Shown here in pieces: positions 39,718 to 55,408 of a stretch of 64,000 nt of DNA. The stretch's first letter is position 1. Each line of letters begins with the position of its first letter. The DNA is from an uncultured bacterium (GTDB lineage: Bacteria > Planctomycetota > SZUA-567 > JAKLDR01), in the NCBI GenBank assembly GCA_937935355.1, contig CALGYR010000100.1:3566-67565 (forward strand). The letters run 5' to 3'. Made by a program: the position numbers and the translations under genes. The notes below the pieces were generated by a model. That model made no database searches. It was not told the DNA's origin and saw nothing but the letters and a program-made list of their open reading frames with translations.

Positions 39718-41217
39718 ATGCGCGAAGTGCTTTTCGCCTGGATAGGCAATACGGACCTGAAGGCGGCGGCCGGCCAGACGGATGTTGGACTCGGCCCGAT
39801 CGGCCAGGCGGTCAAGGCGAAGAGCTACGACAAGCTCGTCCTAATCAGCAACTACCCCAAGGCGCAGGCCCAGGAGTACGCCAAGTGGCTATCCGGGCAG
39901 ACCAGGGCCGAGACGCTCGTCCTCCACGAGAAGCTGAGCAGCCCCACGAACTTCGGCGAGATCTACCTGGCGGCCAGGAAGGCGGTCGATGCTGAACTTG
40001 CCTCCGCCCCCGGCGGCGGGGCCCGCCCGACGTTTCACCTGAGCCCCGGCACTCCGGCCATGGCCGCGGTCTGGATCATTCTGGCCAAGGCGTTCTACGG
40101 CGCGGAACTCATCCAGTCGTCCCGCGAAGAGGGGGTCGTGACGGCCTCCGTGCCTTTCGACCTCTCCGCCGAGTTCATCCCCGACCTGCTGCGGAGGCGG
40201 GACGAGGCCATAGAGCGGCTCGCGAGCGCCACGCCGCCGGAGGCCCCGGAGTTCGCCGACATCGTCCACCGGTGCGAGGAGATGAAGCGCGTCGTGGCCA
40301 AGGCGCGCCGCGTGGCCGTCCACGGCGTGCCCGTGCTCATCGAGGGCGAGTCCGGGACCGGCAAGGAGCTCCTGGCCCGCGCCATCCACGACGCAAGTCC
40401 GCGGCGCGATAAGCCTTTCGTCGCCATAAACTGCGGGGCCATCCCGGCGGGCCTGGTGGAGTCGGAGCTTTTCGGCCACGTGAAGGGCGCCTTCAGCGGA
40501 GCCACGGCCGACCGCCAGGGCCGCCTTGAGGACGCCGATGGCGGCACCGTCTTCTTGGACGAGGTCGGCGAGCTTCCGGCCGACGCGCAGGTCAAGCTCC
40601 TGCGCGTGCTCGAGACCGGGGAGGTGACCCCGGTCGGCTCCGGCAAGACCGTCGAGCTCGACGTGCGGGTGCTCGCGGCGACCAACCGGGACCTCATGGC
40701 CGAGGTGACTGCCGGCCGCTTCCGCGAGGACCTCTTCTACCGGCTGGCGGTGGCGGTGCTGTTCCTGCCCCCGCTGCGGGCCAGGAAGGGCGACGTTGGC
40801 CTTCTGATCGACAGGCTGCTCGATCAGGTCGGGAAGGAGCTTCCCGAGGCCGGCAGCAAGAAGCTTTCTGCGGGCGCAAGAAAGCTTATGCTGGCCCACC
40901 CCTGGCGCGGCAACGTCCGGGAACTGCTCAACACTCTGCGGCGGGCGGCGATCTGGTCCGCCGGCGAGGTCATCGACGCCGACGAGATGCGCGAGGCGCT
41001 CCTGAGCGCCGGCGCCGCGCAGGGGACGGAGGTGCTCGGCCAGCCGCTCGGGAACGGCTTCAACCTTCCGGAAACGCTGGGTTTGGTCGCGCGGCACTAC
41101 CTGGAGCGGGCGCTCCAGGAGTCCGGTGGCAACAAGACCAAGGCGGCCGAGCTGCTCGGGCTGCCCAGCTACCAGACGCTGACCAACTGGCTCAAGCGGT
41201 ACGGGGTTGAGGGATGA
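39718..41217 (+). CDS. sigma-54-dependent transcriptional activator with N-terminal CARF-like (RtcR-type) sensor domain
   Basis: AAA+ sigma-54 domain: 'VLIEGESGTGKELLARAIH', GAFTGA-like 'GHVKGAFSGA', 'FREDLFYRL', and a C-terminal Fis HTH. The N-terminal 'HLSPGTPAMAAVWIILAKAFYGAELIQSS' aligns with E. coli RtcR 'HITTGTHVAQICWFLLAEARYLPARLIQSS'. Confidence 0.85.
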   Translation: MREVLFAWIGNTDLKAAAGQTDVGLGPIGQAVKAKSYDKLVLISNYPKAQAQEYAKWLSGQTRAETLVLHEKLSSPTNFGEIYLAARKAVDAELASAPGGGARPTFHLSPGTPAMAAVWIILAKAFYGAELIQSSREEGVVTASVPFDLSAEFIPDLLRRRDEAIERLASATPPEAPEFADIVHRCEEMKRVVAKARRVAVHGVPVLIEGESGTGKELLARAIHDASPRRDKPFVAINCGAIPAGLVESELFGHVKGAFSGATADRQGRLEDADGGTVFLDEVGELPADAQVKLLRVLETGEVTPVGSGKTVELDVRVLAATNRDLMAEVTAGRFREDLFYRLAVAVLFLPPLRARKGDVGLLIDRLLDQVGKELPEAGSKKLSAGARKLMLAHPWRGNVRELLNTLRRAAIWSAGEVIDADEMREALLSAGAAQGTEVLGQPLGNGFNLPETLGLVARHYLERALQESGGNKTKAAELLGLPSYQTLTNWLKRYGVEG

Positions 41218-41218
41218 A

Positions 41219-41234
41219 TGGCACGGAGGTTGCT
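41219..41234 (+). promoter_or_regulatory. near-consensus sigma-54 (-24/-12) promoter upstream of hsdR
   Basis: 'TGGCACGGAGGTTGCT' matches TGGCACG-N4-TTGC exactly. It lies at the 3' end of the activator gene, 15-55 bp before the candidate hsdR starts. Confidence 0.7.
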
Positions 41235-41287: not shown

Positions 41288-43576
41288 ATGAGGAACAGAT
41301 CCTCGGAGGCGGACGCCAGGATCGTTATCGACGACCTGCTCCGTCAGGCCGGGTGGGACCCGGCCGACAAGTCCCAGGTGGTCACGGAGTTCCATGTGGC
41401 CGGTTCCCCCCAGACGATAGCCGAGAGCAATCCGGCCTACGGACAAGGTGCGGCAGTGCTGGACGGAAGTGCCGAGCCTATGTCGGAGGCTGGTCCGGGC
41501 AGAGGCGACTACCTGCTTCAGGACCGGCGGGGCCGGCCGCTGGCGGTCGTCGAGGCCAAGAGGGCTGGGACCAATCCTTACTCCGCCAAGCAGCAGACGC
41601 TGCCCTACGCCAAGAAGGTGGGCGCGCCCTTCATCTTCCTGACCAACGGCGAGCTCATCTACTTCTGGGACTACATGAACGATGACGCCCGGATGGTCAA
41701 CTCGTTCTACTCCCGGCGCGACCTGGAACGGCTGGTCGAGATGCGCGCCACCCGCAAGGCTATGGCGACGGTCGAGATCCCGGAGTACTACCTTCGCCAG
41801 GGCGAGAACCGGCAGGTTCGGCCCTACCAGCGCGCCGCCATGCAGGCGCTCGACCACGCCGTCGAGCTCGGCAAGCGCCGCTTCCTGATCGAGTTGCCAA
41901 CGGGCACCGGCAAGACCGATCTCACCTGCCTCTACCTCAAGCGGTTGATCCAGGCCGGCCGGGCCGAGCGCATCCTCTTCCTGGTGGACCGTGAGCAGTT
42001 GGCCAAGCAGGCTCTGGAGGCGTTCCAGGATGTGCTGAGCCAGCACGGTAGCTACTGGCTCCGTCCGGGGATGGCGAGACAGGAGCAGCAGATCACTGTC
42101 TGCCTGCTCCAGACCATGATCGGGCGCTACAAGGAATTCACCAGCGGCTACTTCGACGTGGTCGTGGCCGATGAAAGTCATCGCTCTATCTATGGCGCCT
42201 GGCAGACGGCACTTACGCATTTCGACGCGCTGCACATCGGCCTGACCGCCACGCCCTCGGCCTACATCGAGCGCAACACCTTCGACTTCTACCAGTGCCG
42301 GGATGGCAAGCCGGACTTCTCGTTCCCCATCCAGCAGGCCTTCAAGGAGGGCTACCTCGCTCCCTACCGGTTCGCGTCGGGCATTACCGTCATCCTGGCC
42401 GAGGGCGCCGAGGTCGGGGAGGAGGACTACGACCCGGCCGAGTTCGAGCGCAAGTGGACCAACGAGGACACCAACCGGAAGATGATGCAGGAGTTCGACC
42501 GGCTGGCCTGGGAGAACTACCGCGAGCTGGCGCCCGGCCAGAAGATCGTCCCGGGCAAGGCGGTGGTCTTCGCCATCACCAAGCACCACGCTGCCCGGCT
42601 GGCCCAGTACCTGAACGAACTGCACCCAGAGCTCAAGGGCCGCTACGCCGAGGTTATTACCAGCGACGTGGCCAATGCCGACGAGCTCATCCGCAAGTTC
42701 CGGCGCGAGGACTACCCGCAGGTGGCGGTCAGCGTCGGCATGCTCGACACCGGTTTCGACTGCCGGGAGATCCTGCATCTGGTGATGTGCCGCCGGGTGC
42801 GCAGCCCGATCCTCTACCAACAGATGCGTGGGCGGGGAACCCGTACCGCGCCGCACATCGGCAAGCAGGGCTTCGTCATTTACGACTTCTTCGGCAATCG
42901 CGAGTACTTCAACGACAGTGACGCCGATGCCTTCACCGGCGCTGGCGGCGGACACGCCTCCGGCGGGCGGCCCAAGCCTCCCAGCGAGCCCCGCGACTTG
43001 GTGGAATTGGGGCTCCAGGACGAATGGCTTCACGCTGTGGCCTATGTCGAGGTCGGACCGGAAGGCGAGCGCGTCGACAAGAAGGACTACATCACCAATT
43101 GGCAGAAGACGGTCCAGGGCTCGGCCAAGGACGACCCGGTTATCAGGAAGGTCCGGGACGGCGAGTCCCTGAGCGAGGGTGAGGAGAAGGAACTCGCCGA
43201 CCGGCTCAACCGGCCGGAGATGTATTTCAACGAAGAGAACCTCCGGAGAGCCTACCGCCAGCCAGGCGGCAACTTGATCGACTTCATCAGGGCGGCCCTC
43301 GGCAGCCTCAAGATCAAGAGCCGCGAGGAAGTGCTGACTGAGAACTTCCAGGCTTGGCTGGTGGCCAAGTCACTTACCGCGCAGCAGGCCCAGTACCTGG
43401 CGCTGCTCAAGAACCGCGGCATCGTTCGCGGCAAGATCGAGATGGAGGATCTCTTCAGCCCACCCCTCTCGATCCTCAACGCTGCAGAACTCGGCGTCGA
43501 ACTCTTCGGTGAGAAGGGCTTGAAACAGGTAGTTGCCGACCTTAATGAATCCGTGTTCGGCAAGAAGGGTGCATAG
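41288..43576 (+). CDS. hsdR: type I restriction enzyme R subunit (HsdR) with EcoEI_R_C-like C-terminus
   Basis: HSDR_N nuclease motif 'DYLL..RPLAVVEAKRAG', helicase motifs 'ELPTGTGKT' and 'DESH', and the C-terminal 'AWLVAKSLTAQQAQYLALL'. The alternative ATG is at 41249. Confidence 0.85.
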   Translation: MRNRSSEADARIVIDDLLRQAGWDPADKSQVVTEFHVAGSPQTIAESNPAYGQGAAVLDGSAEPMSEAGPGRGDYLLQDRRGRPLAVVEAKRAGTNPYSAKQQTLPYAKKVGAPFIFLTNGELIYFWDYMNDDARMVNSFYSRRDLERLVEMRATRKAMATVEIPEYYLRQGENRQVRPYQRAAMQALDHAVELGKRRFLIELPTGTGKTDLTCLYLKRLIQAGRAERILFLVDREQLAKQALEAFQDVLSQHGSYWLRPGMARQEQQITVCLLQTMIGRYKEFTSGYFDVVVADESHRSIYGAWQTALTHFDALHIGLTATPSAYIERNTFDFYQCRDGKPDFSFPIQQAFKEGYLAPYRFASGITVILAEGAEVGEEDYDPAEFERKWTNEDTNRKMMQEFDRLAWENYRELAPGQKIVPGKAVVFAITKHHAARLAQYLNELHPELKGRYAEVITSDVANADELIRKFRREDYPQVAVSVGMLDTGFDCREILHLVMCRRVRSPILYQQMRGRGTRTAPHIGKQGFVIYDFFGNREYFNDSDADAFTGAGGGHASGGRPKPPSEPRDLVELGLQDEWLHAVAYVEVGPEGERVDKKDYITNWQKTVQGSAKDDPVIRKVRDGESLSEGEEKELADRLNRPEMYFNEENLRRAYRQPGGNLIDFIRAALGSLKIKSREEVLTENFQAWLVAKSLTAQQAQYLALLKNRGIVRGKIEMEDLFSPPLSILNAAELGVELFGEKGLKQVVADLNESVFGKKGA

Positions 43577-43589
43577 GAGCAAGCCGGGG

Positions 43590-44102
43590 ATGACCAATCT
43601 GCCGACAGTAGACGTGGCCACCCTCTGGAATAGCCTTGAGTGGGTCCGGGGAGGTCTGCAGCGGACCCGGTCGGTGACCTGCCCGCTCTGCGTGACGGAG
43701 GCCCCGAAGGCGGCAGGGCTGTACCGCGTTGCTTGGATTTTGGATGAGGGCTGGGAACGCCTAAGCAAGGTTTTTCATGCTCGGGCAACCAAGAGGATCG
43801 TTGACCCGTCGGTTGGTTTCGCCGCCCTTCAGCCGCCCATTGTCCTTTCTATTGGGCGCACCACGAACATCTTCAGCAGAATCCGCCAGCACTTCGGTAA
43901 TAATCGGAACAGCAATCGCATTCTGAGCCGTCTTCGGCAGATCTCGCCTTCTGAGTGGACTGACGAAGACGTCCGAGGTGCGGCTGCCAAGAGCCTGCAA
44001 GTTGAATGGGCGGTGGTGCCTAACTGGGTGGAGCGCTGCCTGCTGGAGAGCTACGGCAAGGCGATCCAGTCCCCCATCCTCGACCTCGACGCGGAGCACT
44101 AG
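43590..44102 (+). CDS. GIY-YIG-like nuclease domain protein
   Basis: 'GLYRVAW' (GIY-like), 'VLSIGRTTNIFSRIRQH' (YIG plus the conserved Arg), and 'ESYG' with a Glu. The RBS is 'aggagcaagccgggg'. GC is locally lower. Confidence 0.5.
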   Translation: MTNLPTVDVATLWNSLEWVRGGLQRTRSVTCPLCVTEAPKAAGLYRVAWILDEGWERLSKVFHARATKRIVDPSVGFAALQPPIVLSIGRTTNIFSRIRQHFGNNRNSNRILSRLRQISPSEWTDEDVRGAAAKSLQVEWAVVPNWVERCLLESYGKAIQSPILDLDAEH

Positions 44103-44105
44103 TCC

Positions 44106-45776
44106 ATGAACCAGGATCTAAGACGCAAGCTCAACCGGATTACCGACATCCTCTGGGCCGGGGGGGTCACGAACCCGGTCACCTACATCGAACAACTTTC
44201 CTACCTGATCTACCTGAAGATGCTCGACGAGGAGGAGTCCAGCCGGGAACTCAAGGCCCGGTTGACCGGCGGGCAGGCGAACGGCAACGGCAATGGCCGG
44301 CTACTCTTCGCCAAGCAGGCCGAGCGCTACCGCTGGACCAAGTGGCGTTTCAAGAGCGGGGTGGAACTCCGCGACTTCGTCCGGGACGAGGTCTTCCCCT
44401 ACATGGCCTCCCTGGTGAAGGAGGAGCCGCAGATCGCGGAGTACTTCCGGGACGCCGTGCTCGAGATCGTGGACGCCAACGTCCTCAAGCAGGTGGTGGA
44501 CGAGATCGACAGCATCGACTTCGCGAAGCTCGGCACGGACGTCAAGGGTGACATCTTCGAGTACCTGCTCACCCACCTGGGCCAGTCGGCGCTCAACGGC
44601 CAGTTCCGCACGCCGCGTCAGATCCGCACCATGATGGTCGAAATGGTCGCCCCGGACCTCGGCGATACGGTCTACGATCCGGCCGCCGGCACCGGCGGCT
44701 TTCTGATCGATGCCGTGGAGCATATCCTGGCCAAATACTCCACCGAGCCGCAGGAGGTGCCCATCTACGGCGAGGAGTGGCTGGAGAGCCGGGGCCAGAC
44801 GCTTGCGGAGGCCAGGAAGGCCGTCCCGGCGCTCCAAACCTACCGCAAGGGGCCGGGCGAGCGCGTTCCCGACTGGAAGCTGCTCGAAGGGGCCATTTAC
44901 GGGATCGACGTGTCGCGGCAGATGATGCGGATCGCCATGATGAACCTGGTGCTCCACGGCATCCGCAAGGCTAACGTCAAGCGGGCCAATACGCTCTCCG
45001 ACATGGGCGGCCTGACCGAGGACGACCTGGCCCGCCGGTACAAGGTCATCCTCTCGAATCCACCCTTTGCCGGCGTGCTCCCCAAGGAGTCCGTGAGGAA
45101 GGACCTGCCCACCAACTCCAAGAAGAGCGAGCTGCTCTTCCTGGGAGTCATGATGGAAGCGCTCGCCCCGGGCGGGCGCTGCGCCGTGGTGGTGCCCGAG
45201 GGGCTGCTCTTCGGGTCCACCTCCGCTCACACTGAGCTTCGTCGGAAGTTGCTCGACGACTACCAACTCCTGGCCGTGGTCTCCCTCCCCGCCGGCGTCT
45301 TCAAGCCTTATGCCGGGGTCAAGACCGGCGTTCTGGTCTTCCGTAAGCCGGAAAGCGCTACGAAGGACAAGAAGAAGCCCGAGGGCAAGGTCTGGTTCTA
45401 CGAGATCCGGAACGACGGCTACGACCCGGACAAGATCCAGGGCGGCGGCCGGCCGGAGACGCCGGCGAAGAACGACATCCCCGACCTGCTCGCCCAGTGG
45501 GCGGAGTACCGGAAGTCCGGCTTCAGGAAGCCTCCGGGCGTGGAGGCCGGGACGCTCCTGGAGGCCGGCAGCCCCGAGCCGCGCTCGTGGTGGGCGCCGC
45601 TTAAGGCCATCGCCGAGAACGAGTTCAACCTGGCCGCCGGGCGGTACAAGCCGCAGGTGGCGGAGAAGGCTCCGGAGGATGACCCGGCGGAACTGATCCG
45701 CGAGACGGCCGAGGTCGAGCGGGAGATCCTTGGCGGGTTGGAGAAGCTGCTGAAGGATGTGGAGGCTGCCCAGTGA
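44106..45776 (+). CDS. hsdM: type I restriction-modification system methyltransferase subunit (HsdM)
   Basis: HsdM_N-like N-terminus, AdoMet motif 'VYDPAAGTGGFL', and the catalytic 'SNPPFAG' motif. Confidence 0.9.
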   Translation: MNQDLRRKLNRITDILWAGGVTNPVTYIEQLSYLIYLKMLDEEESSRELKARLTGGQANGNGNGRLLFAKQAERYRWTKWRFKSGVELRDFVRDEVFPYMASLVKEEPQIAEYFRDAVLEIVDANVLKQVVDEIDSIDFAKLGTDVKGDIFEYLLTHLGQSALNGQFRTPRQIRTMMVEMVAPDLGDTVYDPAAGTGGFLIDAVEHILAKYSTEPQEVPIYGEEWLESRGQTLAEARKAVPALQTYRKGPGERVPDWKLLEGAIYGIDVSRQMMRIAMMNLVLHGIRKANVKRANTLSDMGGLTEDDLARRYKVILSNPPFAGVLPKESVRKDLPTNSKKSELLFLGVMMEALAPGGRCAVVVPEGLLFGSTSAHTELRRKLLDDYQLLAVVSLPAGVFKPYAGVKTGVLVFRKPESATKDKKKPEGKVWFYEIRNDGYDPDKIQGGGRPETPAKNDIPDLLAQWAEYRKSGFRKPPGVEAGTLLEAGSPEPRSWWAPLKAIAENEFNLAAGRYKPQVAEKAPEDDPAELIRETAEVEREILGGLEKLLKDVEAAQ

Positions 45777-47041
45777 AGTGGCACTCGCCAAGGCTATCCA
45801 GACTTGCCCAGATCATCCGGGGCGTCTCGTTCGACAGCTCCGAGGCTAGCCCCACGCCAATTGCGGGGCATGTCCCTATCCTGCGCGCCGGCAACATCGG
45901 CCGCGACCTGGACACAGAGAATGACCTGATCTGGGTCCCGGCAGCCAGGGTGTCAGACGAACAAAGGCTCAAGGCAGGTGACATCGCGATTGCCATGTCG
46001 TCAGGAAGCTCCAATATCGTCGGGAAGACAGCACAGTTGAACCAAGCGTGGGACGGCTCCGTGGGGGCCTTCTGCGCGATCATCCGCCCGTTGGAGACTG
46101 TGAGCGCCGCATATCTCGGGTACTGGCTTCTTGGTCCCACCTTCACCGCATGGCGGCAATCGCAGTGTATGGGGCTGAACATCAAGAACTTGCGGAAGGC
46201 GGAGATCGAGTGCCTGGAAATCCCGCTCCCTCCTCCCTCCGAGCAGCACCGGATCGTGGAGATCCTCGACCAGGCCGACGCCCTGCGCCGGAAGCGCGCC
46301 GAGGCCGACGCCAAGGCCGGGCGCATCCTGCCGGCGCTCTTCTACAAGATGTTCGGGGATCCGGCGACGAATCCGAAGGGGTGGCCGGTGGTGCCTATCA
46401 GCAAGCTGGTTGAACCCATCGAACGGAGAGACCCCTCCGTTCAACCCGAAGAGCCTTTCACCTACATCGATATCGCGAGTGTGAATGGCCAGTTAGGCGT
46501 CATCACCGACACCAAAGCCTTGATGGGCGCAGAAGCTCCCAGCAGGGCGCGGCAGATTGTCAGGGCGAACGATGCAATCATCTCGACCGTCCGCCCATAC
46601 CTTCGAGCGACGGCATTAGTGCCTACGCAACATGACAACCAGATTTGCAGCACCGGATTCTGCGTCTTGAGGGCAAAGACAGGGGTGGGATTTGGCTTCT
46701 TGTATGCTCTTTCCCGCTTGCAGTGGTTCACAGACCAGCTTAACGCACGTGCCCGTGGAGCGTCATATCCGGCCGTGACGGATGCAGACGTTCTCAACCT
46801 GCGCGTGCCGCGACAGACCGACCGGGAAACACTTCAGATATTTGATCGCCAGGTGCTCGATGTCCTTGTGCAACAGGACAAGCGACGTGGAGTTGCATGC
46901 AGACTTGGTGTCTTGTTCGAGACGCTTCTCCACCGCGCTTTCACCGGCGACCTAATGGCCGGTTGGCGCGAGGCGCACATGAATGAACTCCAAATAGAGA
47001 TGGAATCACAGGCCAGAATGCTGAAGGGGGGCGATGAATGA
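45773..47041 (+). CDS. hsdS: type I restriction-modification specificity subunit (HsdS), two TRDs
   Basis: A 4 bp overlap with hsdM. The conserved central and C-terminal repeats are 'LEIPLPPPSEQHRIVEILDQADALRRKR' and 'LRVPRQTDRETLQIFDRQVLDV'. Confidence 0.85.
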   Translation: MKWHSPRLSRLAQIIRGVSFDSSEASPTPIAGHVPILRAGNIGRDLDTENDLIWVPAARVSDEQRLKAGDIAIAMSSGSSNIVGKTAQLNQAWDGSVGAFCAIIRPLETVSAAYLGYWLLGPTFTAWRQSQCMGLNIKNLRKAEIECLEIPLPPPSEQHRIVEILDQADALRRKRAEADAKAGRILPALFYKMFGDPATNPKGWPVVPISKLVEPIERRDPSVQPEEPFTYIDIASVNGQLGVITDTKALMGAEAPSRARQIVRANDAIISTVRPYLRATALVPTQHDNQICSTGFCVLRAKTGVGFGFLYALSRLQWFTDQLNARARGASYPAVTDADVLNLRVPRQTDRETLQIFDRQVLDVLVQQDKRRGVACRLGVLFETLLHRAFTGDLMAGWREAHMNELQIEMESQARMLKGGDE

Positions 47042-47673
47042 TCAGGATCAGTCTGAAGGGCCTAGCCAAATTCATGACCGGCAACTCCGCCAAGCAGCGC
47101 AAAGTTCTCAGGGACTACAAATACCCCGATCCAGAGGGGCATGCGCAGGCAACCTACTACCGAGAGGCCAGAGACTTCATCGTGTCCCATCACCAGAGTG
47201 GGCACAGCCCCCTCTGGCTCCCGGAGAGGGCCGCAATTCTCGACACGCTGGCATCTCAGTCGGCAGGGCAAACCAAAGTCCGCCTTCGCAATAATGCCCG
47301 GGCACTTCGAGAGTACGCGAACCACTTTGGGAAGCGGACATTCAAGGTGCTGCGCGATGTGAATCTCGGCATCGAACACGCCGGCGTTCTGGTAACCTTC
47401 GCTCCTGACCTCCACATCAAGGAAGGCGAGAAGGAGAAGATCATCAGACTTGACTTCACCAAGGAACCTCCTGACGACAAGACCGTCAAGATCATCACTC
47501 AGGCGATGTTTGAGGCGCAGGCAACTCTCGGGATGGGCTTGCCAAGTGCCGCAGTGCTCTACCTGGATGTGCCCCGTGGCCAAACGCACAAGGGTGCCAG
47601 GGCGGGGTCTCGGATGCGCACTGAGATCGAAGCGGCCTGCAAGAACATCTCTGCTCTGTGGGATGGAATCTAG
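47038..47673 (+). CDS. hypothetical protein (211 aa) translationally coupled to hsdS
   Basis: ATGA overlap with the hsdS stop. No recognisable domain. GC is lower. Confidence 0.5.
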   Translation: MIRISLKGLAKFMTGNSAKQRKVLRDYKYPDPEGHAQATYYREARDFIVSHHQSGHSPLWLPERAAILDTLASQSAGQTKVRLRNNARALREYANHFGKRTFKVLRDVNLGIEHAGVLVTFAPDLHIKEGEKEKIIRLDFTKEPPDDKTVKIITQAMFEAQATLGMGLPSAAVLYLDVPRGQTHKGARAGSRMRTEIEAACKNISALWDGI

Positions 47674-47682
47674 GGGAACAAG

Positions 47683-49404
47683 ATGCTCACCGCCCTCCAA
47701 CTCGCCCGCTTCAAGGCCTTTGGCGACCTCCAGCGCGTCCCGATCAAGCCGATCACCCTGATCTACGGCCCGAACAGCGCCGGGAAGTCGAGCCTGATCC
47801 ACAGCCTGATCCTGGCCCGCCAGGCGGCCGAGACCGGCGAACTGGACGTCCACCGCACCCCGGTCGGCGGCGACTCGGTGGACCTGGGCGGCTTCCGGCA
47901 ATACGTCCACCGGCGCAACGCCGGCGAGCGGGTCGAGTGGGCCATGGAGCTCGATACCAGCCGTTTCACTGGGCGCCTGGCTACGCTTCTGGCGGCGGCC
48001 AAGGTGGTTACAGCTCGCGTCGAGGTCGGCTTGGCTCACGAGGAGAAGAAGCGCAAGCGTTTCGTCCTCGATCCCCGGACCGACAAGGCAATCGAGATCG
48101 AGGAACCCACCGGCGAGATGGTGGCCGTGGGGCAACCCGCAATCCAGAGCTTCAAATTGGAGGCCGACTCCACGCCACTCCTGGAGATGAGCCGCCGGCC
48201 GAGCGGCGGCTTCCGGCTGGACAGACTGCACCATGGGCATGCCGTGTTCCGGGAGGTGATCAAGGCCATAGTGGCAGCCTCCACGACGACGGAGTCGTTG
48301 CAGCCGTCCGACTACGAAGGTCTGGACAAGGCAATAGACGCCCTTGTCCCCGACATAGTCGCCACCTGCCGCGGTTTACTACCGGATGGTCTGGCGAAAG
48401 CCGAAGGGCCGGATTCGGAGAAGCCTCCCACGTTGTTTCCAATCAGCAAGGGCCGCCGGCAGGAGGACTTGGCCGCCGCAGTCCGCTTCTTCGTGCCCCG
48501 TACTATTGAAGAACTGCTCAAGGGCGTGAGCCAGACGGTGGGCTTCGAGCTCGACCGATTGCATTATCTCGGACCGCTGCGCTCCTACCCGCCGCGACAC
48601 TTGGCATTTGCCCAGCACCACGATCCCAACTGGATCGCGGGTGGTGGATATGCATGGGACGCGGTGCGGCGGGACGGCAGAGTGCGCGCTCAAGTGAACG
48701 AGTGGTTGGGTGCCAAGAACCGGCTGCAGACGCCTTACGAACTTACCCTGCGTGAACTGGTGGGCGTGGATCAACTGGAGACGCCGATATCCGAAGGCAT
48801 CGAGAATCATCTGGGTCGCGAGGCTGAAGCAAGCAAAGGCCCTGTTGAGGTTGCCGATGATCTAGAGATTAGCAGGTTGCCGTTCCCTGACTTGCTGGAT
48901 GAGCTCCTAACGGCCATCAATTCGGCCGACATCGAGAAACTAGACGAACTTATTCTGAAGGACTGTCGATCCAATACGGTTGTCAGCCACCGCGACGTTG
49001 GCATCGGCATCAGCCAAGTGCTCCCGGTGCTCGTCAGCGCCTACGCCTCCCAGGACCGCCTGGTGGCCATCGAGCAACCGGAGATCCATCTGCATCCCAA
49101 GCTCCAGGCCGAGCTGGGCGACGTGTTTCTGGAGTCCGCCCTCGGCGAGCGCCGGAACACCTTCCTGCTCGAGACCCACAGCGAGCACGTCCTGCTCCGC
49201 ATCATGAAGCGCATGCGCCAGATGGCCGACGGCAGCCTGCCCGAGGGCCTGCCCAAGGTGCGCCCGGAGGATGTGGCGGTGCTCTACGTCGAGCCGGACG
49301 GCTCCCGGAGCATCGTCCGGGAGATGCCGCTCAACGAGCGCGGCGACCTGGTCAAAGCCTGGCCCGGCGGGTTCTTCGAAGAAGGCCTCGACGAGATGTT
49401 CTGA
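47683..49404 (+). CDS. AAA_21/OLD-family ABC-type ATPase (RloA/PtuA/AriA-like)
   Basis: Walker A 'IYGPNSAGKSSL' and D-loop/Walker B region 'LVAIEQPEIHLHP...LLETHSEHVL'. No C-terminal Toprim domain was seen. Confidence 0.75.
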   Translation: MLTALQLARFKAFGDLQRVPIKPITLIYGPNSAGKSSLIHSLILARQAAETGELDVHRTPVGGDSVDLGGFRQYVHRRNAGERVEWAMELDTSRFTGRLATLLAAAKVVTARVEVGLAHEEKKRKRFVLDPRTDKAIEIEEPTGEMVAVGQPAIQSFKLEADSTPLLEMSRRPSGGFRLDRLHHGHAVFREVIKAIVAASTTTESLQPSDYEGLDKAIDALVPDIVATCRGLLPDGLAKAEGPDSEKPPTLFPISKGRRQEDLAAAVRFFVPRTIEELLKGVSQTVGFELDRLHYLGPLRSYPPRHLAFAQHHDPNWIAGGGYAWDAVRRDGRVRAQVNEWLGAKNRLQTPYELTLRELVGVDQLETPISEGIENHLGREAEASKGPVEVADDLEISRLPFPDLLDELLTAINSADIEKLDELILKDCRSNTVVSHRDVGIGISQVLPVLVSAYASQDRLVAIEQPEIHLHPKLQAELGDVFLESALGERRNTFLLETHSEHVLLRIMKRMRQMADGSLPEGLPKVRPEDVAVLYVEPDGSRSIVREMPLNERGDLVKAWPGGFFEEGLDEMF

Positions 49405-50345
49405 TGGCTCTGCTTGCCGAATACGCTCTGACCCCGGACGTCTTCGACTCGGCTTCCTACGCCGGCGAGGAGATCGGCGATCTGCACCTGTCCCATCTCA
49501 AGGAGGCGCTCCTGGACGACGGGGTTGTCCGGAGCCTGCGTAACGGCGAGTGGCTGGCGCAGTTTAGCGGTGACGGTCGCATGTGGCACCGCCGCGGCAA
49601 GGAGCTACTTCACAAGCTGGACAAGCAAGGACGGCTGAGGGCCTGCGCCCCCGTGGGCAACGCCTGCCCGGCAGTTGACTGTGACTGGTGCCATGAGGCC
49701 TTGGGTTCTCACGCCCGTCTCCCGCTTGGCGGGATCGTGGTGACAGACTGTGTCGCGTCAGCCTTCGTGGGGAACCCACTGGTGGCCTCGGTCACGAAGC
49801 TCCCGGCAGCACAATGGTGGAGCGAGCGAAGCCCATCGGCCCGTCTGGTACGGACGAAAGTCGAGTACCAGCGGCACCTTGGCCTGCTTCTGGAGTGTTC
49901 GCGGTCCATTGCCTTCATCGACGCACATCTGGATCCCAGCCAAGGCCGCTACAAGGACTTCGTTGCCATCCTCGCCGGCATGGCGGGCATGAAGCGGGTG
50001 CCGCGGATAGAACTGCATCGCGTATGCCACTCGCAGTTGCGCGGAGAGAAGCCCGACAAGAGGCCGGATCCCGAGCTCAGGCCACTGTTCTTGCGAGAGC
50101 TGTCCTCCCCGTTGAAGGCGGCCGGAATGTCCATCGAGGCGTTCTTCTGGGACGACTTCCATGATCGCCACATCGTCAGCAATCTTGCGGTCCTGCATCT
50201 GGGCAATGGCCTGGATACCACCACCCATCCAAGCGCGATGACTACGTGGACTAGGCTAGGTCGACGTGAAGCCGACGATGTGCGGCGTGAGTTCGATCCT
50301 GCAAGCGGTCGCCACACGCTGGTAGAACGCTTCCCCATTCCATGA
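49404..50345 (+). CDS. hypothetical protein (313 aa), partner of the ATPase
   Basis: A 1 nt TGATG overlap with the ATPase stop. No recognisable domain. Confidence 0.5.
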   Translation: MALLAEYALTPDVFDSASYAGEEIGDLHLSHLKEALLDDGVVRSLRNGEWLAQFSGDGRMWHRRGKELLHKLDKQGRLRACAPVGNACPAVDCDWCHEALGSHARLPLGGIVVTDCVASAFVGNPLVASVTKLPAAQWWSERSPSARLVRTKVEYQRHLGLLLECSRSIAFIDAHLDPSQGRYKDFVAILAGMAGMKRVPRIELHRVCHSQLRGEKPDKRPDPELRPLFLRELSSPLKAAGMSIEAFFWDDFHDRHIVSNLAVLHLGNGLDTTTHPSAMTTWTRLGRREADDVRREFDPASGRHTLVERFPIP

Positions 50346-50608
50346 AACGCCGCAAAGCCAATCCCCAACCCGAATTCGAGCCCACCCGCATCTCGGGCTT
50401 CCGCCCCGTGGCGTTCTTCTTCGCCCTGATCGCCTTCTACCTCCTGGGCCTGACCATCTGGAGCCCATTCTACATCCTCTGGCCCCGCCGCTACCCGGGG
50501 ACGAACTGGTTCCAGTCCGTGGCCATCCGCGGCAGCCTGGTCTGGCAGCTCTGGTCGCGGTACGTCTTTGGGCAGGCCTGGGGGCTGCTGCGCGGCCGGC
50601 ACCGGTAG
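50342..50608 (+). CDS. small membrane protein (88 aa)
   Basis: ATGA overlap with the upstream stop. Two hydrophobic helices: 'FRPVAFFFALIAFYLLGLTIW'. Confidence 0.45.
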   Translation: MKRRKANPQPEFEPTRISGFRPVAFFFALIAFYLLGLTIWSPFYILWPRRYPGTNWFQSVAIRGSLVWQLWSRYVFGQAWGLLRGRHR

Positions 50609-50609
50609 G

Positions 50610-50640
50610 GTTCTCAACCACGAAACACACGAAATACACG
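50610..50640. repeat. three direct 9-bp CACGAAANN units
   Basis: 'cacgaaacacacgaaatacacgaaaga', immediately after the stop of the small TM gene. Confidence 0.55.
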
Positions 50641-50739
50641 AAAGAGGCTTCGAGAGCCGCCGAACGGTGAGCAGGAAGTGTTTCGCCGAGGTTAGCTACC
50701 AAGCCTTCGTGAGGGGCCGGAACCGGGGACATGGAGACC

Positions 50740-50860
50740 CGGTCGTTGTTGTTGTTCACACAGAGCCGCGGAGCCACGGAGAACGGCAAACCAGGCCGTT
50801 GTTGTCCTCTGTGTCTCTGCGTCTCCGTGTGAGAAACAGCCGTTGCTGTTGCCATCATCC
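50740..50860. repeat. family D hairpin
   Basis: 'cacacagagccgcggagccacggagaacgg-N25-gtcctctgtgtctctgcgtctccgtgtgagaa'. Confidence 0.65.
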
Positions 50861-50866
50861 TGCACG

Positions 50867-51685
50867 TCACAAGTCCTCCGCCGCGTACACCAACTCCTTC
50901 TGGAGCTTGGTGAGGGCTCTCTGGGCCTGGCTCCGCAGCTGCCAGAGACGGTCCAGATCGCCGGGGTCGCTCACCGCCGCCTGGGCCAGTTCGGCGCTGG
51001 CGCGCAGGAGCGCCAGGGCGGTGCTCTGCAATGCCGGCCCCCCCTTCAGCTTCCGGGTGGTGTTCACGATCCCGTCGATGACGGGCTGCCAGTCAGCGCG
51101 GGGTTTGCTTGCTTTTGTGGGGGCCGGCTGCGCCAGTTCCGGTTCCAGCGTCGTGACGACTTGGTCGCGGCGCTTGGCGGTCGCGTACTCTTCCCTTAAC
51201 CTGGCGCGGATACCGGGGCCGAAGGTCATGGGGTAGGTGGCAAGCCAGCCGTCGTAGACTATCCTGCTCTTGAACGGCAACAGCACCGTTCGCACCATTA
51301 CAGGCATGGGCCCCAGGCTGAACAAGTCCTCGAAGCTCTCGGACAGGCCCAAAACTCCGTAGGCGCGCGAACCGCCGAGCAGGATGGCGTGGTTCTTCAG
51401 AAACCGGAAGACATAGAAGTCGCCGGCCACGAAGCGTTTCCACTTCTGTACGATCTCCAGTTCGTCCGCCGGCAGTTTGTCCGGATTGTCCCTGACGTAG
51501 GCGTCGATCAGGTCCGGTTCCTTCCACAATGCCTCCCTTGTCCGGTACTTATCGTCTTTGGGCAACGCGGCAAACGCCTCCGCGGACGTGGTATCCGGGA
51601 GCAGGCCGCGCTGTCTGCCGACGTAGGACTGAAGTCCCCATATCAAGCGATAGAACAGGGCGGCTTCTTCCTTCTCCAACTTCAC
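50867..51685 (-). CDS. hypothetical protein (about 272 aa)
   Basis: The listed 411 aa ORF has a GC-artefact N-terminus. The real start is probably the GTG at 51685, overlapping the upstream stop (GTGA). Confidence 0.45.
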   Translation of the reverse strand: MKLEKEEAALFYRLIWGLQSYVGRQRGLLPDTTSAEAFAALPKDDKYRTREALWKEPDLIDAYVRDNPDKLPADELEIVQKWKRFVAGDFYVFRFLKNHAILLGGSRAYGVLGLSESFEDLFSLGPMPVMVRTVLLPFKSRIVYDGWLATYPMTFGPGIRARLREEYATAKRRDQVVTTLEPELAQPAPTKASKPRADWQPVIDGIVNTTRKLKGGPALQSTALALLRASAELAQAAVSDPGDLDRLWQLRSQAQRALTKLQKELVYAAEDL

Positions 51686-52078
51686 GTCCTTCCCCTGCCA
51701 GGCCGGCCGGCTGCGTGGTCCCCGGCTTCGCCCTCTCCGGCGTGGCCCCGCCGGAGCCCTTCGAGCGCCTCGATTCTCGCCCGGGTCTCCTCCGACAGGT
51801 TCTCCACATGTTCCGGGCCCAGGAGGTCGTGCTGCTTCAACTGGAACAGCTTGGCGAAGAGCGTCGACCGGCTCCAGTCGTCGAAGCAGTCGGCGACGAT
51901 GCGGTTGGAGTCCTTGAGGTGCCGGTAGAGCCGGCGGTATTTGTCGGCTTCGGACTGCCCGGCGGCCGCGAGGATGTCCATCGACTGCCGGTTGATGCGC
52001 CCGAACAGGGCGGCGAGCAGCTCCTCCTGGGCCTTCCGCATGTACTTCCAGTCGCGCTCGGGGATGTCTCTGGACATG
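51682..52078 (-). CDS. hypothetical protein (132 aa)
   Basis: Starts at 'MSRDIPERDWKYMRKAQEEL'. Coupled to its flanking genes by overlaps. Confidence 0.45.
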
Positions 52079-52079
52079 C

Positions 52080-52607
52080 TTAGCCTCCCGTTCTCTCCGC
52101 ACCCCGGCCGCCCCTCGCCCGGGTCCACTCCCGGGATGGCGGGGGCTCCGCTATGGGCGGCTCGATGCCTGCCGGGAACCATCCGCCGCGGGTCATTTGC
52201 AGCTCCTTGTAGGTTTTGAACATGAAGGCATGTTTGAGGACTTCGGCCGGAGGCCTGGGGTGCTTCATGTTCTCCCGCCAGTGCTTCTTCTCCAGTGTGC
52301 CGAAGACCAGATAGTCGCCGCCGATCAAGTCGGGGTCCAACTCCACGAACAGGTCGGTGAGCAGGCGTTCGATCTCGTGCTTGTGGGCGGCCAACAGGTC
52401 GCAGCCCCGGCAGTAGCGGCAGGTGTAGTTGAGGGCGACCATCCGCTTCTCGCCGACGTCGATCAGCAGGGGAAGCTTGCGCTGTCCGGTCTTGCGGTGG
52501 CAGACAGGGCAGATCGAGAGCCGCACGTCGGGATAGGGGTTCATGATGAACCCGTATCTGCGGGGCGGCTCCCCTGCACTCGGATCCCAGGCCTTGGCCA
52601 TATCCAT
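52080..52607 (-). CDS. hypothetical zinc-ribbon protein
   Basis: 'CPVCHRK...CRYCRGC', a four-Cys arrangement. Confidence 0.5.
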   Translation of the reverse strand: MDMAKAWDPSAGEPPRRYGFIMNPYPDVRLSICPVCHRKTGQRKLPLLIDVGEKRMVALNYTCRYCRGCDLLAAHKHEIERLLTDLFVELDPDLIGGDYLVFGTLEKKHWRENMKHPRPPAEVLKHAFMFKTYKELQMTRGGWFPAGIEPPIAEPPPSREWTRARGGRGAERTGG

Positions 52608-52623
52608 ATGTTGTCTCCTGTCG

Positions 52624-53370
52624 CTACTTGCGTTGTTCTTCGGCGCCCCCCGGTCCCCGGTCCTCCATGTTCACCTCAAGGCCGTTCTCCCGGCACCACT
52701 CGAGAATGGCCGCTCGGGTCGCCTCATTCTCGAAATCGTGCCACTTCTGGAGCAGGCCGTGGCGCTCGAGCAGGTCCTTGTAGCGGCCGTAGGCGCCGCG
52801 CCGGCTGAAAATCCGGCCGACCTCCCCGGCGAGCTGCGGCGCGTGCCGGTTCACGAAGTTCCCGACCAGGTCGGCGCCCAGGTCCAGGTCGTTCTTGTGA
52901 GGGATCGAGAGGTAGTCTTCCCCGCCCGCGTCCTCGGGCATCTCGTCCATGTCCGCCATCTCGGAGGAGAAGAAGGTCTGCCCCGTCTTCCGGTGGATGC
53001 AGGCGGAGTGATCGCCGTACGGTGCAGAACCCACGAAGTCGAACGCCATTTCGACTTCGGAAAACTTGATGGCCATGCGCTTCTCCTTTGACAGGTTGTC
53101 CGGCTTGGAAACTCCAGCGTCCGGGGGCTGCTGCGCGGCTGCGTCTCTGTTCAACTCGTACTGGTAGAGCTCCTCCCACATCTCGTTCTGGGCAAGCCAG
53201 ACGGGGTCGGCGTTCCTGGCGACGAATTCGTCGACGGGCATCCCGTCGATGGTCGGCGGACGCCTTACCCGCTTCTGCTTGCCGTTGACGAAGATGGTCA
53301 TGAACTCGAGCCGGCGCCGCCGTTTCTCGGCCTTCTCCTTGGCGGTCAGCTTGCGCTTGCGGCGTGACAC
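52624..53370 (-). CDS. hypothetical protein with Lys/Arg-rich N-terminus
   Basis: 'MSRRKRKLTAKEKAEKRRRRLEF'. No recognisable domain. Confidence 0.5.
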   Translation of the reverse strand: MSRRKRKLTAKEKAEKRRRRLEFMTIFVNGKQKRVRRPPTIDGMPVDEFVARNADPVWLAQNEMWEELYQYELNRDAAAQQPPDAGVSKPDNLSKEKRMAIKFSEVEMAFDFVGSAPYGDHSACIHRKTGQTFFSSEMADMDEMPEDAGGEDYLSIPHKNDLDLGADLVGNFVNRHAPQLAGEVGRIFSRRGAYGRYKDLLERHGLLQKWHDFENEATRAAILEWCRENGLEVNMEDRGPGGAEEQRK

Positions 53371-53379
53371 GGGGTGCCG

Positions 53380-54078
53380 TCAGCCGTTCTTGGGCCAGGC
53401 TTCCAAGCGTTCAAGCCACGTCCGGAAGAGCGGGCACTGAGCTCTGATGGCCTCCAACCCTATCTCCAGGACGGCTAAGGTCCCCATGACGGGCTTCTCA
53501 TAGCCGGGCAGCAGCGATTCCACGCGCTTCGACGGGGCCGTCTGAGGGGAATCGTTCACCTCCTCGGGGCTGGCGAAATCGTCCCGTATAGCCTGGAACG
53601 CCGGAGCCAGATCGGGGTGTCCGATTCCGCCGGCGAACCGGGAGCAGTCGCTGAAGAGCAGCCCCTCGAACTCGTGCATCATCACATAGGGAATGAACCG
53701 GCCCGGGTTGAAATCCTCGCCCATCCCTCTACAGACATCCGCCAGCAGGGCGTTCTCGACGGTTGAAGCTTTCTGTGGAAACGGCAAGCGGCCCGCATCG
53801 GCCCGACCGGGCCAGGCCCTGGGACCGCTGCAGGGCAGTCCGTAGTAGTCCACCATGGTCGTTACCAGGCATTCCCCATCCTGCTTGAGGTGGTTCCGAA
53901 TGTCGCCCCGTACTTCCCCCCAGCCGCGGATGCCACCGCGGCGTTGGCGCTGCCGTGCGTTGCCGAGGAGCCGGGCGCCGACCGCCGTGTAGCCATGCTC
54001 GTAAAGGTGGGCCGCGAGCACCTGAGTGACGAAGGATTCCTCCGTCTCGCCTTCCACGTGGACCAGCAATCTAGCCAT
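53380..54078 (-). CDS. DUF4276 family protein (Toprim-like)
   Basis: N-terminal 'MARLLVHVEGETEESFV' resembles the DUF4276/Toprim 'VEGxxE' signature. An 8 bp overlap with the upstream ATPase. Confidence 0.65.
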   Translation of the reverse strand: MARLLVHVEGETEESFVTQVLAAHLYEHGYTAVGARLLGNARQRQRRGGIRGWGEVRGDIRNHLKQDGECLVTTMVDYYGLPCSGPRAWPGRADAGRLPFPQKASTVENALLADVCRGMGEDFNPGRFIPYVMMHEFEGLLFSDCSRFAGGIGHPDLAPAFQAIRDDFASPEEVNDSPQTAPSKRVESLLPGYEKPVMGTLAVLEIGLEAIRAQCPLFRTWLERLEAWPKNG

Positions 54079-55189
54079 GGGCGCGTTCCGCCCCAGGCCG
54101 GCCGCCGAACTCGTTCTTTTCCCAGAGCTGGCCGAGGCTGTAGTTCTCGAGCCATGTGGCCAGCTTGGCGGACTCCAGACGGGTGAACTCGGTTCCCCCG
54201 TGTGCCCGGTCGGCCACCAGCACATCCTCCGGTGCAAAATGGTCCAGGAGGAGAGGTGATTGGGTGGAGACGATGGCCTGTGTCTTGATCGAGGCCTGCT
54301 TGATCAGCGAGGCCAGCATGGTTATGGCGTAGGGATGCAGGCCCAGCTCCGGCTCGTCCACGAGAATAACCGAAGGTCTGTGGGCCTCCGGCTGCATGAA
54401 GAGGGTCGTCAGCGCGATGAAACGCAGCGTCCCGTCCGAGAGCGAGGAGGCGTCGAAGTAGGCCTCGGAGCCCTTGTGCCGCCACTCCAGACGGATCTTG
54501 TCCGGATTGAGCTTCTGCGGCTCCAGCATGAAGTCGTCGAAGAACGGGGTGACCAACTGGACCGTCTTGCGGATGAGGTTGTAGGATGTCTGGTGCTTGA
54601 GCCGAAGATAGTAGAGGAAGGCGGCGAGGTTCGAGCCGTCCGGGCGGAGGTAACGGTTGTCGTTCACGTCGGCCGTCTTCTTCATGGGCGACGAATCGCT
54701 GGTGTCGTGAAAATGGTAGAGCCGCCAGCTGCCGAGGCGGAAGCGAACGTACTTGGCGGTTCGCTCGCAGCCCGGATCGCTGATGCCAGCCTCCGCGCCC
54801 CTCGGCGCGATCCCGCTCTCATAGGGCTTTTCGTAGTGGGCCTTGTCCCAGTAGTAGCCGGTCTCGGCGGTACGGCGCAATTGATCGCCGGCTGCGGGCT
54901 CCAGGGTTATGGCGTACTGGTTGACGCCTTCCTGGAAGGAGATGTGAATCTCCAGCTTCTGAGTGGTCTTCGAGCCGAAGTGCAGCACCTTGTCGGCGCC
55001 GCCGGCCTTGGCGACGTAGTCCTGCAGGTGCCCCTCCCGGATGGCGTGGAGGAAGGCGAAGACGCCGATGAAGTTGGACTTGCCCGAGCCGTTGGGGCCG
55101 ATGACCACGTTGATGGGCCCGAGCTTCAGATTCTCGACGGAAGCGATGCTCTTGAAGCCCTTCACGGTGATGCTGTCTAGCTCAGCCAT
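54071..55189 (-). CDS. AAA family ATPase (AAA_21/SMC-like ABC ATPase)
   Basis: Walker A 'VIGPNGSGKSNF' and Walker B/D-loop 'ILVDEPELGLHP'. It is the usual partner of DUF4276. Confidence 0.8.
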   Translation of the reverse strand: MAELDSITVKGFKSIASVENLKLGPINVVIGPNGSGKSNFIGVFAFLHAIREGHLQDYVAKAGGADKVLHFGSKTTQKLEIHISFQEGVNQYAITLEPAAGDQLRRTAETGYYWDKAHYEKPYESGIAPRGAEAGISDPGCERTAKYVRFRLGSWRLYHFHDTSDSSPMKKTADVNDNRYLRPDGSNLAAFLYYLRLKHQTSYNLIRKTVQLVTPFFDDFMLEPQKLNPDKIRLEWRHKGSEAYFDASSLSDGTLRFIALTTLFMQPEAHRPSVILVDEPELGLHPYAITMLASLIKQASIKTQAIVSTQSPLLLDHFAPEDVLVADRAHGGTEFTRLESAKLATWLENYSLGQLWEKNEFGGRPGAERAHG

Positions 55190-55408
55190 TGCGCGATTCC
55201 TCTGCCGGACCGTCCGGCATTGTAGCGGGCCGGGCGGCGGTTGCATGGACATGATACTTCGGGCAGGAGGGCGGTCAAGGATGATCATCTGTCGGCGCCA
55301 TGCCCGCGGCCTGGAGGACCAACACGCCCATACCGATCGGCCGCCCCCGGGATGATTCCCCCCTCCGCCCGTCGTTTAGTCAGTGCGCCGAGGGGGAGCC
55401 GCACTACT

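Follow-up and report, generated by a model that had tools for sequence, protein, structure and literature searches.

The 64-kb stretch of DNA analysed here (the window), from an uncultured bacterium of the Planctomycetota, carries at the 3′ end of a type I restriction-modification (RM) operon two genes, at 47683-50345, that probably form an anti-phage module of the kind made up by NsnB and NsnC in Menshen and by the two proteins of HEC-03. Menshen (NsnA-NsnB-NsnC) was reportedly described by Millman et al in 2022; the pair in the window comes without the NsnA sensor, and consists of an ATP-binding cassette (ABC) ATPase and a predicted effector, the open reading frame (ORF) ORF313. Two further genes lie against the pair, ORF211 on its 5′ side as cargo and ORF88 on its 3′ side as an addition, and we consider it likely that the region 47038-50608 holds three separate things, the ATPase-ORF313 pair, ORF211 and ORF88, rather than one four-gene system. 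ORFs were taken from a six-frame scan of the window, which is identical to NCBI contig DAIPLX010000026.1 (assembly GCA_036768975.1), on which the same four genes, of 211, 573, 313 and 88 amino acids (aa), are also called:

47038-47673, + strand: ORF211, a stand-alone protein of predicted Cas4/RecB-type PD-(D/E)XK fold, 211 aa
47683-49404, + strand: NsnB-like ABC ATPase with a C-terminal DUF3696 tail, 573 aa (from Pfam and PADLOC)
49404-50345, + strand: ORF313, NsnC-like predicted effector with a PIN-like N-terminal domain and a PLD-like domain, 313 aa
50342-50608, + strand: ORF88, single-pass membrane protein judged by GC content at third codon positions (GC3), a hydrophobic helix and rare homologs, 88 aa

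The pairing of the ATPase with ORF313 carries this reading. Scanning one genome per species, we retrieved 80 loci from many phyla by way of their ORF313 homologs, so that ATPases without ORF313 lie outside the sample, and in 77 of the 79 loci with upstream sequence only a few bases separate the end of an ATPase homolog from the start of the ORF313 homolog. Both exceptions carry degraded remnants of the ATPase; an intact ORF313 homolog stands behind a fragmented ATPase in L037 (9434-10790) and L045 (9569-10840), which suggests occasional decay of the pair. ORF88 occurs in none of the 80 loci, and ORF211 is represented in a single one (L072), by a fragment at a distance of 6 kb. The gene directly 5′ of the ATPase varies, being hsdS in 14 loci and a sigma-54 activator in 15, and elsewhere an OLD nuclease, an AAA_21 ATPase, DUF6119, DUF3800, a pPIWI-associated nuclease (pP_pnuc_1), RhuM, DUF2130 or YhcG. 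Because the pairing is so constant, ORF88 absent, ORF211 nearly so and the upstream gene variable, we take the ATPase-ORF313 pair to be the conserved unit.

The ATPase is recognised by Pfam as AAA_21 (1.6e-16) and AAA_15 (2.9e-15), with DUF3696 at its C-terminus (8.6e-5, which passes the Pfam cut-off). Its best PADLOC models are nearly equal in score, PDC-M55A (1.4e-42), NsnB (1.3e-41) and HEC-03B (2.4e-40), and the models for AriA, GajA, PtuA and Old follow far behind, at 1e-16 or worse (GajA and AriA between 1e-9 and 1e-16). Walker A reads GPNSAGKSS and the Walker B region IEQPEIHLHP. In an alignment of 57 orthologs from related loci, the Walker A lysine K35, YLGPLR (with R300), GIGISQ (G440-I-G442), the Walker B AIEQPE (E464-Q465), ETHSEH (with H498) and the C-terminal tail LVKAWPGGFFEE are conserved. 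An arginine in place of the Q-loop glutamine, a GxG signature and a non-DE Walker B are thus peculiarities that the ATPase has in common with NsnB, for which they have been described (Li et al, NAR 2025, PMC12065111). No Toprim, OLD-like_TOPRIM or DUF4435 match was found by Pfam or PADLOC in the ATPase or its neighbours, PrrC and RloC are absent among its best 25 PADLOC matches, and it ends in the short DUF3696 tail and not in a fused anticodon nuclease domain.

ORF313, for which 742 homologs were found, mostly from uncultured soil and sediment lineages, is predicted to fold into a PIN-like N-terminal domain (about residues 1-140) and a PLD-like domain of PB-PLD1 type (about 145-313). Structural neighbours of the N-terminal half are PIN domains, including SMG5 (8.5), Utp24 and many VapC proteins, and on the PLD side they are Streptomyces PLD, SauUSI, Zucchini, Nuc, BfiI and Tdp1. 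The C-terminal domain has the features of PB-PLD1: a PLD-like fold closest to MIT_C (2YMB), an Asp or Glu after strand 2 (in ORF313 homologs an invariant Asp) and an HDR motif before strand 5, here the invariant H253-D254-R255. With a PIN-like N-terminal domain followed by a C-terminal effector domain, and encoded immediately 3′ of an NsnB-like ATPase, ORF313 also corresponds to what defines NsnC, and this "inPIN + PB-PLD1" architecture has already been described for the NsnC of Menshen (PMC12065111). No relatives of ORF313 were found in viral contigs or plasmids.

How does the pair relate to systems already described? From Menshen it has an NsnB-type ATPase, with DUF3696 and the altered Q, signature and Walker B motifs, and in ORF313 an effector of NsnC-type architecture, but the locus has no NsnA, ORF313 has no PADLOC match to NsnC, and the activator and sigma-54 promoter described below are absent from the Menshen paper (PMC12065111). 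HEC-03 is a two-gene system of an ABC ATPase and a PIN protein, embedded in Hma systems and validated in Escherichia coli, where both genes are required (Payne et al, bioRxiv 10.1101/2024.01.29.577857). The pair resembles it in having two genes and no separate sensor, in the match of its ATPase to HEC-03B, in its PIN-like partner and in being appended to another defence system; it differs in that ORF313 adds a PLD-like domain and fails the HEC-03 partner model, that the host system is a type I RM and not Hma, and that the PIN-like domain may be inactive. PDC-M55, an untested PADLOC candidate, supplies the best-scoring ATPase model, but its score is barely above that of NsnB and no second-component model matches ORF313, ORF211 or ORF88. 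The pair therefore falls outside strict membership of all three, Menshen for want of NsnA and HEC-03 and PDC-M55 because their partner models are unmatched. With PARIS (AriA/AriB), Septu (PtuA/PtuB), Gabija (GajA), OLD and AbiL/RloA-RloB it has in common a broad clade of ABC ATPases that control a separate or fused nuclease, some of them in RM loci; in contrast to these it has no Toprim, HNH or DUF4435 partner, its effector having a predicted PIN-like plus PLD fold. PrrC and RloC are similar in their location at the end of an hsd operon but carry the fused anticodon nuclease that is missing here.

An initial annotation of the window, made from the letters alone, had placed the ATPase in a group of defence ABC ATPases with separate effectors and had seen no fused nuclease domain in it; both observations hold, as its best PADLOC matches are all defence ATPases and it carries a C-terminal DUF3696 instead. 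The proposal that the system is wholly novel does not stand against ATPase matches of about 1e-40 to NsnB, PDC-M55A and HEC-03B, the NsnC-like architecture of ORF313 and the precedent of HEC-03. That the two flanking proteins lack recognisable domains is true at the level of sequence, where Pfam, NCBIfam and PADLOC give nothing above threshold, but structure prediction gives clear folds. Of the checks it proposed, the PADLOC run matched the ATPase to models of defence systems and gave nothing above threshold for ORF211, ORF313 or ORF88, and structure prediction provided a clear fold for both ORF211 and ORF313.

No gene for NsnA (ParB-DUF262 plus ParBDB) was found in the window or in about 64 analysed neighbourhoods, and a scan of the window and the 80 loci for the DUF262 motifs QRxxxW and DGxQR returned only the GmrSD positive control in L003. 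The varying upstream gene was considered as a candidate NsnA and rejected: ten representative upstream genes belong to other families, and ORF211 gives no DUF262 match. The NsnB-NsnC core of Menshen appears to exist also as a large, sensor-less two-gene family, with an effector that has no match in the PADLOC v2.0.0 models. The published survey of Menshen would not be expected to retrieve this family, because it was seeded on the DUF262 domain of NsnA.

Upstream, the pair shares its strand with a string of genes that begins with a regulator:

39718-41217, + strand: sigma-54-dependent activator (bacterial enhancer-binding protein, bEBP), heading the putative superoperon (Pfam Sigma54_activat 3e-68, AAA_lid_14, HTH_8)
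41219-41234, + strand: predicted sigma-54 (-24/-12) promoter TGGCACGGAGGTTGCT, 2 nucleotides (nt) 3′ of the activator stop and about 55 nt 5′ of the hsdR start
41288-43576, + strand: hsdR, type I restriction subunit (Pfam ResIII, EcoEI_R_C, HSDR_N; start from the source-contig gene call)
43590-44102, + strand: 170-aa gene embedded between hsdR and hsdM, with sub-threshold Pfam similarity to GIY-YIG and TniQ (0.003 and 0.02)
44106-45776, + strand: hsdM, type I methyltransferase (HsdM_N and N6_Mtase on the source-contig gene call)
45773-47041, + strand: hsdS, specificity subunit (Pfam Methylase_S 3e-12)

A homolog of the 170-aa gene at the equivalent position, 45% identical, occurs only in L077. 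The hsd genes themselves recur: of 60 loci whose upstream sequence reaches 9 kb or more, 30 have a close relative of this type I RM ahead of the pair and on the same strand (hsdR mostly 64-81% and hsdM mostly 63-87% identical), and they come from Planctomycetota, cyanobacteria, Gamma- and Deltaproteobacteria, Spirochaetia and Ignavibacteriota. Since closely related hsd genes precede the pair in such diverse phyla, RM and pair seem to move as one cassette across phyla. The other 30 lack hsd genes of this type over 10 kb, and their pair comes immediately after the sigma-54 activator, frequently within tandem arrays.

The promoter is conserved as well. In the window TGGCACGGAGGTTGCT is the sole exact match to TGGCAC-N5-TTGCW, with 0.04 expected by chance. 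A strict scan for TGGCAY-N5-TTGCW over 1.38 Mb of related loci gave 33 sites, compared with about 1.6 expected from base composition by our own estimate, and 31 of the 33 lie on the operon strand, just 5′ of hsdR or, in loci without RM, of the ATPase. Homologs of the activator are found 5′ of the operon in 45 of the 80 loci, and when up to one mismatch is tolerated, 36 of 40 loci show a sigma-54 site 0-140 nt 3′ of the activator stop, versus 1.2% of control windows. Tandem arrays of paralogous pairs, each a DUF3696 ATPase with an effector of about 310 aa, are present in L015 (8331-14483) and also in L021, L030, L064, L069 and L070, and such arrays occur in some Vicinamibacterales and Latescibacterota loci. 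Their second effector is distantly homologous to ORF313 (hhalign 95%) and has HAR or HPR in place of HDR, the H-x-R being kept, and their second pair has its own sigma-54 site, which in L015 is a strict site just 5′ of that pair; in L031 a second sigma-54 site lies 3′ of the ORF313 homolog. At the level of sequence, the whole string in the window, hsdR, the 170-aa gene, hsdM, hsdS, ORF211, the ATPase, ORF313 and ORF88, stands behind one sigma-54 promoter, and the type I RM operon is presumably sigma-54 dependent and inducible. With a single promoter of this kind and an RtcR-like activator beside it, signal sensing may therefore sit largely at transcription.

How might a pair without a sensor act? 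By analogy with published models of NsnB4-NsnC2 and with the solved complexes of Septu, PARIS and Gabija, oligomers of the ATPase would hold ORF313 through their DUF3696 tails and the PIN-like domain, the ATPase acting, we infer, as scaffold for the effector and as its regulator. On a phage cue the ATP-bound state of the ATPase would change, and the PLD-like nuclease, once released or activated, would degrade nucleic acid and stop the infection. The natural E-Q Walker B suggests that ATP hydrolysis is slow and switch-like. As NsnA is missing, the trigger could be perceived by the ATPase itself, as in PARIS, passed on by the RM complex, as in PrrC-type systems, or be largely transcriptional by way of the activator. 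In such a scheme RM would be the first layer of defence and the ATPase-nuclease pair the terminal one.

The assignment of the pair to the NsnB-NsnC and HEC-03 kind has to be weighed against several observations that pull the other way. ORF313 matches no PADLOC model (threshold E = 0.1), and thus none of the partner models of NsnC, HEC-03 or PDC-M55, and PADLOC likewise gave no match for relatives of ORF313 or for the divergent partners in L088, L015 and L003, so that the proposed link of ORF313 to NsnC is one of predicted fold and of motif only. The similarity of the ATPase to the NsnB, PDC-M55A and HEC-03B models is concentrated at its N-terminus and in its C-terminal third, and its central insert differs. 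Contact between ATPase and ORF313 through DUF3696 is taken from the literature on related systems and would apply here by analogy. The N-terminal domain of ORF313 could have PIN RNase activity after all, since several acidic residues are retained (D15, E67, D92 and E98 invariant, D12 and E39 shared by 90% or more of the sequences). As to regulation, the assignment of the activator to RtcR, with its CARF domain, is tentative, because its N-terminal domain resembles Pfam RtcR only at sub-threshold scores, in 8 of 15 homologs (best 1e-3) and not in the copy in the window; when PDB sequences were searched with the activator profile, the matches were confined to the AAA+ core of other bEBPs, with none to CARF. 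Finally, a lineage-specific functional link of ORF211 with the ATPase is conceivable, since ORF211 directly precedes the ATPase in L003, L084, L088 and L090. We nonetheless hold the two-gene, sensor-less reading to be the probable one, given the near-constant pairing, the motif-level likeness of the ATPase to NsnB and the predicted architecture of ORF313.

A further-reaching proposal, tentative and in our view somewhat doubtful in its full form, is that transcriptional sensing replaces the missing NsnA: an RtcR-like, CARF-type activator would respond to a signal of infection or RNA damage by turning on a superoperon built in layers, RM first, then interchangeable cargo nucleases such as ORF211, then the abortive ATPase-PLD pair. 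The result would be a conserved, horizontally mobile and inducible immune cassette in many phyla, one that differs from Menshen and HEC-03, which are constitutive, and has its parallel in the RtcR-CoCoNuT superoperons. In type II CoCoNuTs an RtcR homolog stands at the 5′ end, DNA-restriction systems including type I RM lie between, and a terminal nuclease is the predicted last line (Bell et al, eLife 2024, PMC11090510). The likeness lies in the order of parts, a putative RtcR-like CARF-ATPase-HTH activator followed by a co-directional restriction system and a terminal nuclease system; the differences are that the terminal system here is the DUF3696-ATPase/PIN-PLD pair and not McrBC-like, and that the sigma-54 promoter itself is identified and conserved. 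Tight coupling to the activator and its promoter, in half of the loci together with one type I RM lineage, offers a handle on how sensor-less ATPase-nuclease modules are triggered, and bears on the question of RNA damage as a signal that induces defence "superoperons".

It is unlikely, we think, that the RM complex itself stands in for NsnA, as it would if HsdRMS held the sensor-less pair inactive and the pair fired once a phage anti-restriction protein had disabled that complex, in the manner of PrrC in EcoprrI. The recurrence of related hsdR and hsdM ahead of the pair in many phyla would fit such a guard, as would the short distance from the hsdS stop to the ATPase start (tens of nt, up to about 170 nt) in the 14 loci where these genes are adjacent, and PrrC is taken up as a precedent by the authors of HEC-03 (bioRxiv 10.1101/2024.01.29.577857). 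However, the 30 loci lacking hsd genes within 10 kb indicate that the pair can exist without RM, and the interval between hsdS and the ATPase often holds cargo genes of various kinds.

ORF211 is one of these many interchangeable cargo genes, embedded between hsdS and the pair. It has 219 homologs of near-constant length and belongs to no Pfam family. Its predicted model (pLDDT, the predicted local distance difference test, 92.5) aligns over nearly its full length with RecB/Cas4-type PD-(D/E)XK domains of AdnA, AdnB, MGME1, ACE1 (an Argonaute-associated Cas4-family protein), Cas4, RecE and lambda exonuclease, and a Foldseek comparison with viral models returned PD-(D/E)XK/RecB exonucleases. An acidic residue at 124, H126, E129, E/D139 and Q155 are conserved; as the position of the usual catalytic lysine is not conserved and the Cas4 cysteine set is absent, ORF211 is best described as a nuclease-fold protein of uncertain activity. 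Among 83 ORF211 loci examined, the order hsdS-ORF211-ATPase occurs only in the four named above, which are among the closest relatives of the window (56-65% identity), and the remaining 79 have no ATPase. Neighbours there are heterogeneous and include DndB, SIR2, RM methylases, Cas1, AbiJ, Mrr and plasmid-replication genes. A constant partner for ORF211 was sought and none emerged, the best being hsdS (7 of 83 loci) and a 156-aa ORF (5 of 83), with neighbouring Pfam families scattered. ORF211 occurring singly (L001, L002, L085-L163) may be an independent family of single-gene nucleases, of defence or of mobile elements, and from its predicted fold it would represent a Cas4/RecB-fold family without an earlier name that turns up repeatedly in defence islands.

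ORF88 is a rare, lineage-specific addition that is translationally coupled to ORF313 here and lies outside the conserved module. It has one hydrophobic helix (about residues 22-45) and a GC3 of 0.92, as genuine genes of this genome have; a search of 1.8e9 cluster representatives gave 10 matches, about 8 of them small homologs, which share a WPRRYPG-type motif. The GC3 and this small family led us to reject the possibility that ORF88 is a spurious ORF, and its absence from the 80 ORF313 loci and the unrelated genes around its closest homolog led us to reject it as a component of the module.

These distributions bear on the idea from which the work started, that all four genes form one system, with ORF211 as sensor or accessory, the ATPase as motor, ORF313 as an effector and ORF88 as a terminal membrane effector. 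Much in the layout of the window would suit it: as the initial annotation had it, four + strand ORFs abut or overlap at the end of hsdS and the type I RM operon, which the ORF scan and the source-contig calls confirm. The ATG of ORF211 overlaps the hsdS stop at 47041 (ATGA overlap), the ATPase and ORF313 overlap by 1 nt, ORF313 and ORF88 are joined by another ATGA, and no meaningful internal sigma-70 promoter or terminator was found in 46.8-51 kb. All four are moreover real genes, judging by the homologs of ORF211 and ORF313, the clear family matches of the ATPase, and the GC3 and small homolog family of ORF88, which looks like a genuine single-pass membrane protein; and ORF211 does precede the ATPase in four close relatives of the window. 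Yet the claimed co-conservation of four genes dissolves once other loci are compared, only the ATPase and ORF313 travelling together, and in L003, which has the ORF211 order, the module stops after the ORF313 homolog and an integrase comes next. Membership of a described system, or genes that are not co-conserved, had been named as what would tell against the four-gene module, and this is what we find for ORF211 and ORF88 and, in part, for the pair. An 88-aa membrane-disrupting terminal effector fares no better, as ORF88 has no conserved linkage and its closest homolog lies elsewhere. A single four-gene system is therefore very improbable, and the reading as a conserved pair with ORF211 and ORF88 beside it is preferred.

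Least probable, by a little, is a non-immune role, in which the pair and ORF211 would serve to repair or process nucleic acids, or as an addiction module of toxin-antitoxin type, and would merely hitch-hike in a mobile RM cassette: the classical targets of RtcR-type activators are RNA repair genes (PMC7790460), the structural neighbours of ORF211 are repair and recombination nucleases and integrases or transposases lie near some loci, but the best matches of the ATPase are all defence-system ATPases, the source-contig gene calls show no RtcA or RtcB in the operon, the neighbours are overwhelmingly defence genes (RM, OLD, HEC-01, DUF6119, the pPIWI-associated nuclease), and the relatives HEC-03 and Menshen are experimentally anti-phage (bioRxiv 10.1101/2024.01.29.577857, PMC12065111).

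The surroundings of the operon contain further genes. Directly 5′ of the sigma-54 activator and on the same strand lies a 554-aa ORF without a Pfam match (37968-39632, + strand). On the other side, a spacer of 258 nt (50609-50866), AT-richer and without a terminator-like hairpin in a simple scan, separates the + strand operon from a convergent block on the - strand. This block, which converges on the 3′ end of the hsdR-to-ORF88 operon, begins with a HEC-01 pair at 53380-55288 (- strand), made up of an AAA_21 ATPase (PADLOC 1.1e-141) and a DUF4276/Toprim partner (3.9e-72), and continues in the same direction with genes of 248, 175, 131 and 272 aa at 50867-53370 (- strand), of which one has a weak UPF0158 match and the others belong to no family.

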